A stretch of 64,000 nt of DNA from Candidatus Methanomethylicaceae archaeon GD_Cm_T35_P0_bin.15 (GCA_038801785.1 JAULTD010000003.1:15169-79168), one strand, 5' to 3'; numbered from the stretch's first letter, positions 33,024-40,195 are shown. The notes: generated by a model from the letters alone, not told the origin. Numbers and translations are program-made.

Positions 33024-34964
33024 CTACGCCACCGAGCACCCTCCCGGAGGCACGACAGACCCGATCTCGCCGTCAGGGATCGCCCGGATTATCCTCCTCT
33101 CGAGGTCGGAGGGTGCACGGCCCGCGGCCGCCTCCCTCACCTTCTCGGCCAAGTCTGCGCCCTTCAGCGCCCCGGGCGTCAGTACGGCGTAGGACGGGGT
33201 TGAGCCCTTCACGAACTCCTCGCCACCTACGATTATGCCGAACGCGCCTTCTGAGAACCTCACCCCGAGGAGGAGGGAGAGGGGGATGTTCCGGACATAG
33301 TTCCTCGTCCCGTAGATCATGAATGCGCCCTTCCCGAGGTACTCGCCCGAGGGCGGGGTCTTGGTCACCTGCTCCGAGCCGACCCAGTAGCCGTCCGAGA
33401 CGCCCAAACCCGCCCTCCAGGCCCGCGAGTATGCCACCGCGAACGCCACCGCATCGGCCTTCACCCTATCGGGTATGTCCCTCCCCTCAGACTTTACTAT
33501 GACGACCGAGCCGCCAGGGAGGTCCGAGTGGGCGAAGACGTCCTTCGGGCCCATGTGCTTCTTTACCAGGATCTCGTTCTGGGTGGCGTCCTTTCCCCCC
33601 AAGATGAGGAAGCCTGATGAGAGGGTCCACCTGAAGCGCTCGTACCATGCCCTCTTCATCGCCTTGACCGTCACGTCCGGCGCCACCTTGATCAGGCCCT
33701 CCCTCAGTTCACGCATCTTCGCCTCGGTCTCTGCCATCGCGGCCCTCAGGCCCTCCAGCTTCTTTGCTGCCTCTTTCGACCTGGCGAAGCGTTCCTCTGC
33801 GTTCCTGGTGGCGGACTGTCTAAAGTCGATCTCCAGCTTCTGGCCGCCCAGAGAGACGGTCATGGTCCCCTTCGAGTGATCCAGCGACTCCACGCCGAGC
33901 CCCCTCACCGAGGATTCTATGCCCGCCCAGCCCTCCCCCGCCTTCCTCGCCGAGAGGACCCTCTCGATCGCGGGCTGGAGGGTGCCGAGGTTGGCCAGGA
34001 TCAGCTTCCCCGCAGCGCTGTACCGGGCCTTCTCCTCCTCGAGCTCGCCGGCGTGTGCGGCCTGCCTTGACAGGATCGCCTGCAGATCCTCAAGCTTCTG
34101 TTCGATGGGCGACCGTTTCCCCGACTCTGCCCCCTCTGCCCGGACGGCGGAGAAGTACTCATCCACGGCGTCGTTGAAGGTCTCGAAGCGCTTCGCCTCC
34201 CTCTGGCGGAAGGCTACCGGCAGGACTGTGGAGTACCTGCCGTCCTCCAGCACGATGTTGGGCTGGAAGCGGCCGTCCCTGACCTCCTCCACGAGGGCGC
34301 GGGCGCTAGCCAGGAAGGAGTTCAGCTCCTCCTGGCTCACCTCCGAGGGGGAGCCGGGGTTGAGGGAGGCCCGCAGAAGCGCCTCTTCCACTACCTCGGC
34401 GGGGGCGTTCAGCGCCCTGGTCAGGGACCTGACGAGGCTTACCTTGGACCTTATCGCCCCGGCCTCGAGCGGCATGAAGAGGTCCTGCCCCCGCTGAGGC
34501 GGGGGGGAGTACCGGTAGCCGACCTTTACCGTCCGATCCTTCATCGAGAGCGTGAGAAGCGTGTACCTGATCGTCCCGTCTGGGCCGGTCACGACGATGT
34601 TGCCGCTGCCGAACAGTTCAAAGTAGATCCTCAGGCGCTCTCCGCCGCGGGAGGCGTCCATGTGGAGGATCCTGTCGAAGTCGACCTGGCCCACCCCTTC
34701 CACCTTTGCTGACGAGAGCAGCCTCCTGAGGGCGAGCGCCTTCGCCGTGGGGGCAGCCGGGATGCGGTATTTCACGCGTGTAAGGTTCAGCCGCCTCCCC
34801 GGCTCTACTATAAGGTTGGCCTGGCCGGATTTTGCGTGGAACCTGAAGAGGAAGCTGCCGCCATCCAGCTGGTAGACGTTCTCAATGCGAGCACTTATAA
34901 GCACGGATTCCAGTTCTTTAACGAGAGCCAAGAGGTCTAGAGATGTCAGGCCAAGCTTCACCAC
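33024..34964 (-). CDS. Ribosome quality-control factor Rqc2/NEMF (RqcH) family
   Basis: NFACT-N with FDRI and ELF..GNIV, coiled coil, WYERFRW, GGKDATQNE, PSGEYLGKGAFMIYG. Confidence 0.92.
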   Translation of the reverse strand: MVKLGLTSLDLLALVKELESVLISARIENVYQLDGGSFLFRFHAKSGQANLIVEPGRRLNLTRVKYRIPAAPTAKALALRRLLSSAKVEGVGQVDFDRILHMDASRGGERLRIYFELFGSGNIVVTGPDGTIRYTLLTLSMKDRTVKVGYRYSPPPQRGQDLFMPLEAGAIRSKVSLVRSLTRALNAPAEVVEEALLRASLNPGSPSEVSQEELNSFLASARALVEEVRDGRFQPNIVLEDGRYSTVLPVAFRQREAKRFETFNDAVDEYFSAVRAEGAESGKRSPIEQKLEDLQAILSRQAAHAGELEEEKARYSAAGKLILANLGTLQPAIERVLSARKAGEGWAGIESSVRGLGVESLDHSKGTMTVSLGGQKLEIDFRQSATRNAEERFARSKEAAKKLEGLRAAMAETEAKMRELREGLIKVAPDVTVKAMKRAWYERFRWTLSSGFLILGGKDATQNEILVKKHMGPKDVFAHSDLPGGSVVIVKSEGRDIPDRVKADAVAFAVAYSRAWRAGLGVSDGYWVGSEQVTKTPPSGEYLGKGAFMIYGTRNYVRNIPLSLLLGVRFSEGAFGIIVGGEEFVKGSTPSYAVLTPGALKGADLAEKVREAAAGRAPSDLERRIIRAIPDGEIGSVVPPGGCSVA

Positions 34965-35257
34965 AACCGCCTCCCAAGGCGCCTGTCAGATATCGCATGA
35001 TGTACTATACTAGGGTGGCATTTGCATTTATAGGCGGCGTACTGGCGGGTGCGCTCAATATCAGAGGGGATCTGGGGCTGCTCATGGGGGTAGCGATCTT
35101 CCTGCTCACCTACCTGATCTTCAGGTATATCCGGTACTTCAGCGAGGGGAGCCCTGACAAGAAGAAGCTATACATGACCGGCATCTTCTCCTTCTTCCTA
35201 CTCTTCCTGGCGATGTGGATCCTCTCGATCAACCTGTTCTACCCGGTGATGCCTTAG
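34943..35257 (+). CDS. Small 3-TM membrane protein, EMC6-like (start uncertain, possibly ATG near 34998)
   Basis: YYTR...GVLAGALN..G..G, TM2, TG.FSFFL.F...W....N pattern. Confidence 0.6.
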   Translation: MSGQASPQPPPKAPVRYRMMYYTRVAFAFIGGVLAGALNIRGDLGLLMGVAIFLLTYLIFRYIRYFSEGSPDKKKLYMTGIFSFFLLFLAMWILSINLFYPVMP

Positions 35258-35793: not shown

Positions 35794-36681
35794 GTGAAGG
35801 CCAGAGAGGTCGCGGAAGCCATCAGGACCCTCGAGACGAGCCTCCCGGGCGACGTCGAGGATGCGCTGGAGAGGTGCCTCAGGGCAGAGGAGGGGAACTC
35901 GAGGAGGGTGATGGAGGCGATCCTAGAGAACGTCAGGTATGCCAGGGAGAAGGGGATACCGATCTGCCAGGACACGGGGACGCTGGTCTTCTTCGCCAAG
36001 TGCAGTGCGCGGGCGGCCGAGGCCATCAGGGAGGGCGTCGAGATCGCGACGGTGGAGGTCCCGCTCAGGGCAAATACCGTCGACCCCTTCACTAGGGAGA
36101 ACGACGGGAGGAACCTCGGTAGGGGCAATCCGATCATCCATCTCGAGTGGGAGGGGGAAAAGAGGAGGTGCGGTGGGGGAGGTGGGGGCGGGAGCAGTGT
36201 GGAGGAGGGTGGCGGTGACGCTCCGACGGTCATCTCGATCCTGGCGAAGGGCGCCGGCTCTGAGAACGTGAGCAGGTCGTTCATGCTCGACCCGGACCGC
36301 GGGATCGAGGGGGTGAGGGAGGGCGTCATAGATACGGTGAGGGTTGCCGGCGCGAAGCCCTGCCCCCCGATAGTCATCGGAGTGGGCGTCGGGGGCTCTC
36401 TGGAGTGGTCGGCTTACCTCTCGAAGAAGGCGCTGCTCAGGCCGCTGGGCAGGAGGGCGGAGGACCCGACCGTGGCCAGACTGGAAGAGGACCTGCTCAG
36501 CAGGATCAACGCCCTCGGGATCGGACCGATGGGGTTCGGCGGGAAGACGACCGCGCTGGGGGTCAGTGTCGAGTGGGCGTACTGCCACACGGCAAGCCTG
36601 CCGGTCTCGGTGAGCATCCAGTGCTGGGCCCTGAGGAGGGTGACGGCGGAGTGGGGCAGGGACGGTTTCCACATAAGGTGA
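35794..36681 (+). CDS. Class I fumarate hydratase / tartrate dehydratase alpha subunit
   Basis: PICQDTG, KGAGSEN, PCPP..IGVGVGG, IGPMGFGGKTT, HTASLPV, QCWA. Confidence 0.93.
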   Translation: MKAREVAEAIRTLETSLPGDVEDALERCLRAEEGNSRRVMEAILENVRYAREKGIPICQDTGTLVFFAKCSARAAEAIREGVEIATVEVPLRANTVDPFTRENDGRNLGRGNPIIHLEWEGEKRRCGGGGGGGSSVEEGGGDAPTVISILAKGAGSENVSRSFMLDPDRGIEGVREGVIDTVRVAGAKPCPPIVIGVGVGGSLEWSAYLSKKALLRPLGRRAEDPTVARLEEDLLSRINALGIGPMGFGGKTTALGVSVEWAYCHTASLPVSVSIQCWALRRVTAEWGRDGFHIR

Positions 36682-36693
36682 GGTGACACGCCA

Positions 36694-37251
36694 ATGACCG
36701 GGACGACAACCAGCGGAGGCACGAGGACGCTGAAGCTGAGGACCCCCCTCAGAGATGCGGCCAGCCTGAGGGTGGGCGATGTGGTCTACCTCTCGGGCGA
36801 GGTCTATACGATGAGGGATCAGGCACACCTCAGGGCTGTGCGCCTCATCAAGGGAGGGGGGGAGCTCCCGTTCGATCTGACGGGCGCCGTAGTCTACCAC
36901 TGCGGCCCCCTGGTGAAGGGGGGGAGGGTGATCTCCGCCGGGCCGACCACCAGCATGAGGATGGAGAGGAGCGAGCCTGATCTGATACGCCTCACCGGCC
37001 TGTCGGGCATCGTGGGTAAGGGCGGGATGGGAAAGTCGACCTTGGAGGCGCTTGCAGAATGCGGCGCGGCGTACATGGAGTACCCCGGAGGGGTGGGGGC
37101 CCTCGCCGCCCGGTCGATGGGGAAAGTCAGGGATGTCTTCTGGACAGACCTCGGCGACCCCGAGGCGGTGTGGGTGATACCCGTGGAGGACTTTGGTCCC
37201 TGCTTCGTCACGATGGACTCTCACGGCGGCATGCTCAAGAGGGATTTTTAG
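36694..37251 (+). CDS. Class I fumarate hydratase / tartrate dehydratase beta subunit
   Basis: GDVVYLSG...RDQAH, YHCGP, GPTTSMRM, GKGG, TMDSHG. Confidence 0.93.
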   Translation: MTGTTTSGGTRTLKLRTPLRDAASLRVGDVVYLSGEVYTMRDQAHLRAVRLIKGGGELPFDLTGAVVYHCGPLVKGGRVISAGPTTSMRMERSEPDLIRLTGLSGIVGKGGMGKSTLEALAECGAAYMEYPGGVGALAARSMGKVRDVFWTDLGDPEAVWVIPVEDFGPCFVTMDSHGGMLKRDF

Positions 37252-37293: not shown

Positions 37294-39798
37294 TCACGGG
37301 CAGGCTTTCTTCTTGTTGGCCCAGGTAGACCGGATGAGGTCGACAAAGCGCTTCGTCGCCTCTTCGGGGTTTGCAGACTTGGTTATGGCCCCGCCCACTA
37401 TAAGGATGCCCGCGCCGGCGTTCACCATCTGCGGGACCACTTCCAGCTTGATCCCGCCTGCGACGGCTACGGGGATCTTGACTGCGTGGGTCACCTGCTC
37501 CACGAGGGCTATCTTCTGCTCGACGCTCCGCTCCCTCGTCTGGGCGCTTATCCCCACGTGGAAGCAGACATAGTCGACCCCCAGCTTCTCGACCTCGACT
37601 GCCCTCGTGATGGGGTCTTTGAGGTTCATCAGGTCGACCTCGACCTTGATGCCGTACTTCCGCCCGGCGCCCACCGCCTCCTCGATCGTATAGTTGTCGG
37701 TCGCGCCCATCACCGTGACGATGTCGGCCCCGGCCTCGACCGCCAGCTCGGTCTCCAGGCAGCCGGTATCGAAGGTCTTGAGGTCCGCGACGAGTATGGC
37801 GTTCGGGCAGACCCTGCGGAGCTCCTTCACGACCCTGAGGCCCTCGGACTTTATGAGGGGGGTCCCCGCCTCGATTATGTCTGCGCCGCCCTTGTATGCG
37901 CGTTCGGCAATCGGAAGGGCGTCCTTCAGGTACCGCTCGTCGATGGCTACCTGAAGCTTCGGACCGTCGTAGAGAGGTTTGAGGCCCAACTGTGACACCT
38001 TTTTGTCTGTCGGGATTCCGTTGTAATCCCAACCTCTGACAGCGTAATACTCATTTAATAACCTATCCATATCCACAGTCTGGCCCTTCGCAGGCCCCCC
38101 GGGGAGGGGCGTCTCGAGGAACCGCTTCGGGAGGTAGTCGTCCTTCCTGCTGAACCCCTCCCTCGCATTGAAGAGGCGCTCGATGTTGTAGATCCTCTCT
38201 CCCGCCCTGTAGAACTCTTCCTGATCGAAGTAAAAGCCCGTCGCGCTCGTCAGCAGCCTGGCGTAAAAGTCGGGCTCGAAGGCAAGGGTCTTGAAGAGGG
38301 CGAGGGTGGTATACTTGCACATCACCAGGGAGTCCATCATCGCGAAGACGTCCTGCATCACCTTGGTCAGCGCAGCCTTGCTGTCGTAGGCGCCCGGGTT
38401 GAGGTAGCGCGGGACGCTCAGCACCTCCGGGGCGATCATATAGGCCCTGAGGTGGCACCCTCCCCTGTTGGAGGTGGCGTACGAGAGGGCCTGGCCCTTC
38501 ACCCCGCGGGGGTCGTAGGCCGGCAGCTCGAGGCCCTTTACGTGCATCCCGAGGTCCTCGCACTTGAGGATCTGGGAGGCGCCCTTCACCCCCTCGGCAA
38601 GTACGTTCCCTATGCCCTCTCTCATGGCGGTCTTCCTGATCAGTTCGAGTTCTGCCTGGGCGTTGCCGAACTTTGCGCCCGCCGCGTCCTCGGGCCTGAC
38701 GACATTCTTCTCGACGCACTCCATCAGGAACCCCACCGCCTGGCCCATCGAGATCGTGTCGACGCCGAGACGGTCGCAGAGGTCGTTGGCCACGGCTATC
38801 GCGTTCAGGTCGAGCACTCCGCAGTTAGGCCCAAGAGACCAGACGCTTTCGTACTCGGGGCCCTCGGTCTCGATGACCTCCCCCGACGGGAGCCTGGCCT
38901 CAGTCACCCTGCCGCACATGATGGGGCAGGCGAAGCATCCCTTCTTCCCCTTGAGGATCGTCTTGCTTATGCGCTCGCCGCAGACCATCTCCGCCTCGTC
39001 CAAGACGGCGGCAGAGTAGTTCTTCACGGGGAAGACGCCCGCCTTGTTTATCAGGTGCACTAGGACGGCGGTGCCGTACCTGCCCAGGCCGTCCCCCGTG
39101 ATGGGGTGCCCCTTGATGACCTGAAGGCTCCGCTTCACCTCCTTCATGAAGGCGTACCGGTTGGCCAGCGGGATCTCACCCCTCCCCCTGACGACGATCG
39201 CCTTCAGTTTCTTCGACCCCATGACCGCGCCTAGACCGCCCCTGGCTGCAGTCCGGTGCTTCTCGTTGAATATGCCGGCAATCTTGACGAGCCTCTCGCC
39301 TGCCGGGCCGATGCAGGAGACCCTCGCGAGGGGGTCGCCGACTATCCTCTTGAGACGATCCTCGGTCTCGAAGACGTCCAGGCCCCAGAGCGGGGATGCA
39401 TCGTGCAGCTCAGCCTTCCCGTTGATTATCGATAGGTAGACAGGGGAGTCGCTTGCGCCCTCGAAGATTATCCCGTCGAAACCTGCCCTCTTCAGCTCGG
39501 TGCCGAAGTGGCCTCCGCTGTTCGAGTCCAGAATCGTCCCCGTGGCGGGGGATTTTGCTGAGACGGAGAACCTGCCGGAGGTCGGGGCGGCGGTGCCTGT
39601 CAGCGGCCCTGTCATGAAGATGAGCTTGTTGCGGGGCCCCAGAGGGTCCACGCCTGCCGGCAGGTCGTCGTAGAGGAGCTTGGCAGCATAGCCTCTCCCC
39701 CCGATGAAGTTTGCAGCGGTCTCCCAGTCAATCTCCTCGACGGAGAGTTCCCTGGACGACAGATCGACTCGCAGTATCCTGTTCACGTATCCGCCCAC
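37294..39798 (-). CDS. Tungsten aldehyde:ferredoxin oxidoreductase fused to a C-terminal 3-hexulose-6-phosphate synthase-like domain
   Basis: AOR motifs IGGRG, GPLTG, KSPATG, IGPAGE, RGGLGAVMGSKKLKA, CFACPIMCG, GPEYE, DPRG, RGGCH; then in frame LQVAID, EAGTPLIKSEG, VADLKTFD, VAGGI, IVGGAIT (HPS/KGPDC family). Confidence 0.92.
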   Translation of the reverse strand: MGGYVNRILRVDLSSRELSVEEIDWETAANFIGGRGYAAKLLYDDLPAGVDPLGPRNKLIFMTGPLTGTAAPTSGRFSVSAKSPATGTILDSNSGGHFGTELKRAGFDGIIFEGASDSPVYLSIINGKAELHDASPLWGLDVFETEDRLKRIVGDPLARVSCIGPAGERLVKIAGIFNEKHRTAARGGLGAVMGSKKLKAIVVRGRGEIPLANRYAFMKEVKRSLQVIKGHPITGDGLGRYGTAVLVHLINKAGVFPVKNYSAAVLDEAEMVCGERISKTILKGKKGCFACPIMCGRVTEARLPSGEVIETEGPEYESVWSLGPNCGVLDLNAIAVANDLCDRLGVDTISMGQAVGFLMECVEKNVVRPEDAAGAKFGNAQAELELIRKTAMREGIGNVLAEGVKGASQILKCEDLGMHVKGLELPAYDPRGVKGQALSYATSNRGGCHLRAYMIAPEVLSVPRYLNPGAYDSKAALTKVMQDVFAMMDSLVMCKYTTLALFKTLAFEPDFYARLLTSATGFYFDQEEFYRAGERIYNIERLFNAREGFSRKDDYLPKRFLETPLPGGPAKGQTVDMDRLLNEYYAVRGWDYNGIPTDKKVSQLGLKPLYDGPKLQVAIDERYLKDALPIAERAYKGGADIIEAGTPLIKSEGLRVVKELRRVCPNAILVADLKTFDTGCLETELAVEAGADIVTVMGATDNYTIEEAVGAGRKYGIKVEVDLMNLKDPITRAVEVEKLGVDYVCFHVGISAQTRERSVEQKIALVEQVTHAVKIPVAVAGGIKLEVVPQMVNAGAGILIVGGAITKSANPEEATKRFVDLIRSTWANKKKACP

Positions 39799-39871
39799 AG
39801 CCAGTCCCCCAGAATTGGGAATAGGTAACGCCAGTACATACTTATATCTTTCCCGCAACTGATCTAAGACC

Positions 39872-40150
39872 ATGGAAGTCAAGGTGGAGTTCTTCGCGTA
39901 CCTCAGGGAGAAGATGGGGACGGCCAGCAAGGTCGTCTCCTTCAGCGGCGGCACCGTCAGGGACCTCGTATACGACGTCGGCGGCGGGCCGGGCGGGACG
40001 CTCAGCGAGCAGGTGATGGCCGGGGGGTGTCTGAGGGAGATGGTGAAGGTCCTCGTTAACGGGAGGGATGTGAGGGGGCTGGACGGCCTAGACACCGAAC
40101 TCCACGACGGGGATGTCGTCTCGTTCTTTCCGCCGGTGGCGGGCGGATGA
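39872..40150 (+). CDS. MoaD/ThiS/SAMP ubiquitin-like sulfur carrier
   Basis: VEFFAYLRE, VLVNG, DGDVVSFFPPVAGG C-terminal diglycine; divergent from the AOR gene. Confidence 0.93.
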   Translation: MEVKVEFFAYLREKMGTASKVVSFSGGTVRDLVYDVGGGPGGTLSEQVMAGGCLREMVKVLVNGRDVRGLDGLDTELHDGDVVSFFPPVAGG

Positions 40151-40195
40151 GGGCCGGACGGTGGCACTGCCGCATCGGAAGGGGTCGTCCGACCC

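Follow-up and report, generated by a model that had tools for sequence, protein, structure and literature searches.

Many archaea that have no oxidative pentose-phosphate pathway make their pentoses by running the ribulose monophosphate (RuMP) pathway backwards, which releases one formaldehyde per pentose. What becomes of this formaldehyde in cells that lack the tetrahydromethanopterin (H4MPT) carrier, and hence Fae, is a question to which we know of no settled answer, and it is raised by a gene of Candidatus Methanomethylicaceae archaeon GD_Cm_T35_P0_bin.15. The window analysed here, a stretch of 64,000 nucleotides from this genome (GCA_038801785.1 JAULTD010000003.1:15169-79168), carries at 37294..39798 on the minus strand a single open frame of 834 amino acids (aa) plus stop, in which an aldehyde:ferredoxin oxidoreductase (AOR) runs straight into a hexulose-6-phosphate synthase (HPS). 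Both halves of this AOR-HPS fusion look catalytically intact at the level of sequence, and it probably serves the reverse RuMP pathway while oxidising the released formaldehyde to formate with ferredoxin as the electron acceptor.

The domain analysis accounted for nearly the whole protein. AFOR_N was found at aa 7-205 (39184..39780, minus strand; Pfam PF02730, E 1.6e-83, 279.8 bits, profile positions 2-198 of 199), and AFOR_C, comprising AOR domains 2 and 3 with Glu317 and His449, at aa 221-606 (37981..39138, minus strand; PF01314, E 1.2e-139, 466.2 bits, profile positions 3-385 of 385), so that both AOR domains are present at full length. An HPS-type (beta/alpha)8 barrel occupies aa 613-834 (37297..37962, minus strand); it is recognized by the Pfam OMPdecase/HUMPS model (aa 613-818, E 1.3e-33), by TIGR03128 and by HPS chains of the Protein Data Bank (PDB). 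Between the two lies only KPLYDG (aa 607-612, 37963..37980, minus strand), which sets the AOR C-terminus against the first strand of the barrel. The last residue of Pyrococcus furiosus AOR (1aor) pairs with aa 610 and the HPS alignment begins at aa 613-614, leaving about three residues between the two enzymes. The length of this junction is constant in 87 aligned long rows, save for a one-residue shift in a few and for eight forms of 988-1014 aa, and no single solved chain in the PDB spans both parts. An earlier note on this DNA, made from the sequence alone, had described an uninterrupted frame of about 830 aa with a complete AOR followed by a complete HPS barrel, and this description holds. 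Each of the motifs it had read is also present: LGLKPLYDGP (aa 604-613), EAGTPLIKSEG, VADLKTFD, VAGGI, IVGGAIT and HVGIS.

Is the barrel really an HPS? Its five best NCBIfam models all contain HPS, with scores of 238 bits for NF005442, 198.5 for TIGR03128, 196 for NF041755 and 163 for NF009833, compared with 105 and 96 bits for models of 3-keto-L-gulonate-6-phosphate decarboxylase (KGPDC). The best matches in the PDB were to HPSs as well (9lj9_B, E 4.8e-59; 3ajx_A, E 3.5e-38; also 3f4w). An alignment of 71 fused proteins of 803-842 aa, built to assess invariance, showed that D620, E643, D672, K674, D677, D722, H747 and the AGG phosphate loop (A780-G781-G782) never vary on the HPS side. Among these, D672, K674 and D677 make up the DxKxxD motif of the OMPDC suprafamily (37768..37785, minus strand), which could be aligned to solved HPS and KGPDC structures, and E643, D672, K674, D677, D722, H747, I750 and A778 all align with solved HPSs, so that the suprafamily's catalytic set of metal Glu, DxKxxD and His is complete. 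Work of the Gerlt laboratory is said to have identified three positions that separate HPS from KGPDC (E112, R139 and T169 of KGPDC), and at these positions the structure alignment places the HPS-type residues Asp722, Ile750 and Ala778.

One residue had given rise to doubt. Three solved HPSs and KGPDC share an Asp four residues after the catalytic His, in the motif H-x-G-x-D, and structure alignments place Ser751 there in the present protein (His747-Val-Gly-Ile-Ser751, 37546..37560, minus strand). The earlier note had therefore questioned HPS activity. The substitution itself is real, but the idea of a lone lesion does not stand: among 87 rows, aa 751 is Ser in 35, Asp in 51 and a gap in one, and Ser occurs in all 35 closest fused rows (the query, P0003-P0038, which are of the Methanomethylicaceae and Nezhaarchaeales type, and P0044), while H747 is invariant. 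Judged from these alignments, Ser751 is a clade-wide fixed variant under conservation. Since it is fixed throughout a clade in which this protein is often the sole HPS, a dead barrel is not likely.

The AOR half is equally well preserved. Residues 3-610 align end to end with residues 3-605 of 1aor (579.6 bits), and C288, C291, C295, C494, E317 and H449 correspond to C288, C291, C295, C494, E313 and H448 of that enzyme; from the 1aor structure we take the cysteines to be [4Fe-4S] ligands and the Glu and His to be active-site residues. Three of the four cysteines form the CxxCxxxC motif (38914..38937, minus strand) and the fourth, C494, lies at 38317-38319; all six residues are invariant in the 71 fused proteins. 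Because the catalytic residues of both halves are invariant in this set, both active sites appear to be under selection. The fused AORs also carry a feature of their own, a six-residue insert reading FKTLAF in the query (aa 502-507, 38278..38295, minus strand). The spacing from C494 to G521 is 27 residues in 82 of 82 fused rows and 21 residues in 65 of 70 unfused rows, and the insert falls in a gap of the PDB AORs 9mqx and 1aor. It is a candidate element of a domain interface or of a substrate path.

We then asked how widely the fusion occurs. A protein-cluster search with query aa 560-834 against a collection of 5.8 billion proteins listed 120 clusters, and 91 of these combine AFOR and OMPdecase domains, mostly in proteins of 803-860 aa, which places the architecture proposed in the earlier note well beyond one genome. 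Named sources of the fused clusters are Methanomethylicaceae, Nezhaarchaeales, Thermoprotei, Promethearchaeota, Hodarchaeales, Heimdallarchaeota and Thermoplasmata. A further scan, taking one genome for each species, in which at least 13 of the 80 loci listed are fused and 67 are unfused AORs, added Bathyarchaeia (Hecatellales), Hadarchaeia and Nanohalarchaeota (DPANN). Two Chloroflexota loci (L063 and L077) that seemed to match as far as residue 688 were rejected as fusions, being ordinary AOR frames of 626-629 aa. Automatic annotation at present names only one half of the fused proteins, as "aldehyde ferredoxin oxidoreductase" in some cases and as "3-hexulose-6-phosphate synthase" in others.

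The fused AOR halves form a single group. In an unrooted FastTree tree of 82 fused and 70 unfused rows, the latter being the nearest unfused AORs among the matches listed plus four paralogs of the source genome, a branch with support 100 sets all fused halves apart from the unfused ones, and IQ-TREE under a site-mixture model, run on 29 fused and 40 unfused rows of this set, gave an SH-aLRT value of 100. From this clustering in both trees, together with the shared six-residue insert, we conclude that there was a single fusion event and that its products constitute an AOR subfamily of their own, as far as the aligned sequences go.

Several variants of the architecture were seen. In the eight long forms of 988-1014 aa the AOR is followed first by an additional half barrel of HPS-like type, about 170 aa in length, and only then by the full barrel, and the Nanohalarchaeota locus (L020:425-3421, 998 aa) is of this kind. 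In the long forms the extra half barrel retains DxKxxD and the full barrel lacks the third Asp (8 of 8). Within the one chain, the extra half may take the part that a second subunit plays in the usual dimer. A second, divergent type of AOR-barrel fusion, of 823-830 aa and with a barrel 36-43% identical to that of the source genome, occurs in five genomes; its domains were checked with Pfam in one of them, which belongs to the same order as the source genome (G015, locus L095:241-2733). The genomes with this type also carry an HPS of 437 aa, and its barrel may for that reason act on another substrate. In a further locus, from the class sample centred on a Hodarchaeota genome (L096, G110:C1:1041500-1051500), the fusion is split: a frame of 704 aa contains the AOR and the first approximately 65 barrel residues, followed by about 6.2 kb with a 604-aa frame of no known kind, eIF2-gamma and a P-type ATPase, and then by the remaining barrel as a frame of 182 aa. 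An uncultured archaeon (L021:4692-7156) has the fusion as two overlapping frames of 161 and 681 aa, suggesting that the reading frame was broken close to the N-terminus by a frameshift or by faulty assembly.

Having established the family, we examined the pathway genes around it. The source genome (1.49 Mb in 8 contigs, completeness score 74.9%) encodes McrA on contig 6; besides this canonical copy, a second, weak MCR_alpha match (G000:C2:151620-151994, 69.6 bits, in a frame of 562 aa) may be a divergent Mcr-like paralog. The fusion is the sole HPS-like gene of the genome, its other OMPdecase match fitting PyrF models best, and a separate PHI gene lies on a contig other than that of the fusion (G000:C7:345944-346486, 183 bits against a cut-off of 160). 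Profile searches of the source genome found no Fae, no Mch, no transaldolase and no Fdh-alpha, and the search for ribulose-phosphate epimerase returned a self-match only. The check on phi, fae and further hps copies suggested in the earlier note thus gave a PHI, no Fae and no second HPS. Two tandem PurP-family genes are also present (G000:C7:178328-179916, 245 and 240 bits to PF06973). As enzymes of this family consume formate and ATP, the two genes are a possible sink for formate.

The same picture was obtained across the family. Among 32 genomes of the same family, 27 have an ortholog of the fusion (25 with frames of at least 795 aa and two truncated at contig ends), three have a stand-alone HPS only, and two incomplete ones have no HPS. 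PHI scored above its cut-off in 29 of the 32 and in 17 of 17 high-quality genomes; transaldolase was found in one and Fae in none. Two single-contig genomes that are 97% complete (G029 and G036) have the fusion and PHI, with no Fae and no transaldolase found. These methanogens thus combine PHI with a fused HPS and have neither Fae nor a full non-oxidative pentose pathway, which makes the reverse RuMP pathway their evident source of pentoses and leaves its formaldehyde without an H4MPT sink.

AOR-HPS also appears as an alternative to Fae-HPS. Three class-level samples (62 + 81 + 81 = 224 genomes) were searched with the barrel and with a Fae model. In Methanomethylicia (n = 62), 41 genomes carry the fusion and eight others carry Fae-HPS. 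The class of a Hodarchaeota genome (n = 81) has the fusion in 12 genomes, with two more apparently split, and Fae in 11, of which 10 are Fae-HPS, without overlap. In the class of a Hecatellales genome (n = 81) the fusion occurs in 13 genomes, plus one shorter frame, and Fae in 39, about 35 of them as Fae-HPS. Overall, Fae-HPS was found beside AOR-HPS in 0 of the 66 fusion genomes of the three classes, and some Fae-family gene was found in 10 of the 66; searches of five further named fusion genomes found no Fae. As related genomes are not independent and many are incomplete, this exclusion should be taken as a pattern that is consistent rather than as a statistical result.

On these grounds, the following mechanism is proposed. 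A separate PHI would convert fructose-6-phosphate to hexulose-6-phosphate, the C-terminal HPS barrel would cleave the latter to ribulose-5-phosphate and formaldehyde, and the N-terminal tungstopterin/[4Fe-4S] AOR module would oxidise formaldehyde to formate, passing two electrons to ferredoxin. The oxidation would clear a toxic product and draw an unfavourable cleavage forward, the role that Fae plays in Fae-Hps. The net outcome would be a ferredoxin-linked "oxidative" synthesis of pentoses that yields formate and not CO2, and the formate may go to the PurP-type formate-dependent purine enzymes of the source genome. What we infer in this scheme is the identity of the AOR substrate, the direction in which flux runs, any hand-over between the sites and the fate of the formate. 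With regard to the hand-over, an AlphaFold2 model of both modules, computed from the 71-row alignment, reached a pLDDT of 94.7 and a pTM of 0.92, suggesting that the modules of 606 and 222 residues are held in a confidently fixed arrangement, with which the nearly linker-free junction agrees. Modelling the halves as separate chains gave a score of 0.04 against a mark of 0.32, a comparison run without controls that gives no answer on docking. Channelling between the AOR and HPS sites is a hypothesis.

A number of observations weigh against this mechanism. The AOR half is nearer to broad-specificity AORs (579.6 bits to 1aor and 583.6 to 9mqx) than to the formaldehyde oxidoreductase FOR (1b25, 371.2 bits), which places it outside the FOR subfamily, and none of its sequence features points to a preference for formaldehyde. 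Four more, unfused AOR paralogs in the source genome could also oxidise formaldehyde. The barrel scores slightly under the TIGR03128 (RuMP_HxlA) cut-off (198.5 against 200 bits, over model positions 1-203 of 205) and has Ser751 where three solved HPSs and KGPDC have Asp. As condensation is the favoured side of the HPS equilibrium, the opposite direction is chemically possible. The source genome also has a Transketolase_N gene. At a completeness of 74.9%, gene absences in this genome are provisional, and related genomes are not independent samples. Nor is the fusion necessary or exclusive: three genomes of the same family (G022, G023 and G026) have a stand-alone HPS alone, with no Fae found; in another family of the Methanomethylicia sample (f9), 8 of 10 genomes have a stand-alone Fae beside the fusion; and two genomes (G161 and G197), the only overlap in the Hecatellales-class sample, pair it with Fae-domain frames of about 500 aa of another kind. 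The suggestion of the earlier note that the fusion would suit an organism without the H4MPT route is therefore consistent with the source genome, where neither Fae nor Mch was found, and with the 0 of 66 co-occurrence with Fae-HPS, although the family f9 shows that the link is not strict. Its wider claim of a third solution to the formaldehyde problem finds partial support: architecture, intact-looking residues, a sole HPS, PHI, the failure to find Fae and Mch and the exclusion of Fae-HPS all fit, and the strict tie to a missing H4MPT route has to be given up.

The explanation that competes best is that the two halves act independently, the HPS in the RuMP pathway and the AOR as a general aldehyde/acid oxidoreductase, and that no formaldehyde is handed over, the fusion serving only to aid co-expression, stability or assembly. 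Such an arrangement would agree with the broad specificity of the nearest solved relatives, with the AOR-typical MoaD neighbour that has been kept (see below) and with the unfused AOR paralogs commonly held by the same genomes. However, a clade of single origin has kept the pairing, the almost linker-free fixed junction and the insert over at least seven archaeal lineages, and it excludes Fae-HPS, the other formaldehyde-handling fusion, from all 66 genomes. A conserved pairing together with this exclusion is hard to explain without a functional link, and we regard independent activities as unlikely.

Flux in the opposite direction would turn the fusion into a formate-assimilation module for sugar phosphates, in which the AOR would use low-potential ferredoxin to turn formate into formaldehyde and the HPS would trap the formaldehyde at once on ribulose-5-phosphate. 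The thermodynamics of HPS would favour it, a fusion would hold free formaldehyde at a minimum, and a hydrogen-using methanogen has low-potential ferredoxin at its disposal. AOR-family enzymes able to reduce acids have also been described (PMC10816221). Against this stands the need to regenerate ribulose-5-phosphate: neither transaldolase nor ribulose-phosphate epimerase was found in the source genome, and transaldolase was found in only one of the 32 family genomes. No other pentose route was found, so that the cleavage direction is needed, and no Fdh-alpha was found as a source of formate. Moreover, AOR-HPS stands in for Fae-HPS, which is read as cleaving in methanogens (PMC9723798). The chance that assimilation is the true direction seems to us rather slim, and cleavage with oxidation of formaldehyde is kept as the preferred direction.

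A barrel acting as another lyase or decarboxylase of the OMPDC suprafamily, on another sugar phosphate, with the AOR oxidising a different released aldehyde, is a quite improbable alternative. The slight shortfall against TIGR03128, the Asp-to-Ser change at aa 751 and the existence of the divergent AOR-barrel fusions with 36-43% barrel identity would be in its favour, but the five top NCBIfam models contain HPS while KGPDC models score 105 and 96 bits, the top PDB matches are HPSs, the positions that discriminate HPS from KGPDC carry HPS-type residues, and a genome with PHI has no second HPS. Finally, a merger of neighbouring genes through assembly, annotation or sequencing error can be dismissed almost with certainty, because contigs from four other sequencing runs of four studies (one from the same study as a possible source sample, one labelled RNA-Seq but probably DNA) bridge 37962-37995 without a gap, the same architecture recurs in 91 of the 120 clusters listed, and 25 genomes of the same family have open frames of at least 795 aa; the junction, part of the frame that the earlier note had read as uninterrupted, is genuine.

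Taken further, the data allow a bolder proposal, which we put forward as possible rather than probable. An ancient "oxidative pentose" route of anaerobic archaea, so far unrecognised, of single origin, carrier-free and linked to ferredoxin, may have AOR-HPS at its core; its reaction would be fructose-6-phosphate to ribulose-5-phosphate + formate + 2 reduced ferredoxin, and formaldehyde would pass directly between rigidly docked sites. Present in TACK, Asgard, DPANN, Hadarchaeia and Thermoplasmata, it would supply ribose, and formate for PurP/PurT-type purine enzymes, to cells without an H4MPT or folate C1 pool, and the insert by the Fe-S cluster would lie in the path of hand-over or in the domain interface.

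The surroundings of the gene are in keeping with its proposed role. A gene of the ThiS/MoaD sulfur-carrier family whose product ends in GG (39872..40150, plus strand; Pfam PF02597, E 1.8e-16) is divergent from the fusion, as the earlier note had stated, and a MoaD-family gene stands in the same divergent position in six related loci. It probably serves maturation of the tungsten cofactor. An adjacency of aor and MoaD has been described for Thermococcus kodakarensis (PMC11323500), and the conserved neighbour, being like that arrangement, fits a genuine tungsten enzyme. In Hadarchaeia (L075:7-4434) a RuBisCO large subunit, the fusion and a double-SIS protein that fits the PHI model best follow one another. 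A Hodarchaeota locus (L019:135-6853) has a GFO/IDH oxidoreductase, the fusion, MoaD directly downstream and then an HPS-like gene of the Fae-Hps type without Fae, with a PHI-like double-SIS gene and phosphofructokinase (PFK) on the opposite strand. The neighbours in these two distant lineages support a sugar-phosphate role for the fusion.

The divergent intergenic region of 73 bp (39799..39871) bears on the start of the gene. Inspection by eye, without statistics, showed a TATA-like box, AAGATATAAGTAT, at 39850-39838 and a G-rich, ribosome-binding-like site, GGGGGA, at 39810-39805, both upstream of the GTG at 39798. This GTG also agrees with the length of the relatives, mostly 811-842 aa and of the same architecture, and is the likely start codon. 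Two other candidates were rejected: a GTG at 40167, which gives a longer frame, runs into the divergent ThiS/MoaD gene, and with an ATG at 39873 the TATA-like box would fall downstream of the start. On the other side, genes for the alpha and beta parts of a class-I fumarase (35794-37251, plus strand) converge on the fusion gene, an arrangement kept in Methanomethylicia loci only (seven loci). Elsewhere in the window, a predicted membrane protein of 104 aa (34943-35257, plus strand) matches the Pfam family EMC6 (E 3.7e-7), which is best known from the eukaryotic endoplasmic reticulum membrane complex.

The fusion offers a concrete answer to the question of formaldehyde disposal for the methyl-reducing methanogens of Methanomethylicia and for many Asgard archaea, Bathyarchaeia, Hadarchaeia and DPANN. 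Should the proposal be right, reconstructions of metabolism in these groups would change: making pentoses would generate formate and reduced ferredoxin. A defined physiological substrate could also be assigned to one clade of the AOR family, which is poorly understood, and C1 engineering would have at its disposal a compact two-step module combining aldol cleavage with aldehyde oxidation, or the reverse.

How does AOR-HPS compare with known systems? Fae-Hps and Hps-Phi are named in the literature as the archaeal HPS fusions (PMC11291895, PMC6946796, PMC9723798), in line with the earlier note, which had listed these two; its list is incomplete, as the best NCBIfam match of the barrel is a third, HPS-RraA-like type. 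Fae-Hps of methanogens and their relatives (NF009833) resembles AOR-HPS in logic, since an HPS barrel is joined to a partner that disposes of the formaldehyde from the reverse RuMP pathway and occupies the same genomic place. The partners differ: in Fae-Hps it is an N-terminal H4MPT-dependent hydro-lyase and the carbon stays as methylene-H4MPT, whereas in AOR-HPS it is a tungsten-type oxidoreductase of 606 aa that is proposed to use no C1 carrier, to release the carbon as formate and to reduce ferredoxin. Only the HPS half of NF009833 matches (model positions 168-379, 163 bits against 274), and the Fae domain has no counterpart in AOR-HPS. Hps-Phi, from Thermococcales and others (NF041755, PDB 9lj9), shares the HPS barrel and the pathway. 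There, however, the partner of the HPS is the enzyme that comes before it in the pathway, and the formaldehyde is released free, while in AOR-HPS the PHI is separate and the candidate consumer of formaldehyde is the fused one; model positions 4-214 alone match (196 bits against 500), without the C-terminal PHI (SIS) part. The third type, [quoted passage not shown] (NF005442, 238 bits against a cut-off of 593), matches by its HPS half alone, its partner being a C-terminal RraA-like domain. Among the matches listed, proteins of this type, of about 460 aa, are the nearest relatives of the barrel outside the AOR fusions (46-53% identity), and, judging from second HPS frames of 432-455 aa, they appear to occur together with AOR-HPS in two families (f7 and f9).

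On the AOR side, P. furiosus AOR (1aor) and the solved tungsten AORs 9mqx, 9g7j and 8c0z have the same Fe-S cysteines, Glu and His, but stop where the barrel of AOR-HPS starts and are without the six-residue insert after the fourth cysteine. FOR shares the AOR family and its cofactors and can oxidise formaldehyde, for which it has poor affinity, yet it is more distant and unfused. AORs of Thermococcales have a MoaD-family neighbour, as AOR-HPS does (PMC11323500). A related functional proposal concerns Brockarchaeota, where an unfused tungsten AFOR beside HPS and PHI is proposed to oxidise formaldehyde to formate (PMC8065059); it involves separate genes and the direction of fixation or detoxification, and the passages of that paper devoted to it mention no fusion. 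A legend in another paper credits the reverse RuMP pathway with supplying reducing power to the Asgard ancestor (PMC10307638). A full-text literature search, with most subscription-journal papers and supplements outside it, returned no description of an AOR-HPS fusion. Set beside these systems, AOR-HPS is apparently a widely conserved and undescribed fusion, which gives HPS a third partner in the form of a distinct AOR subfamily of single origin.

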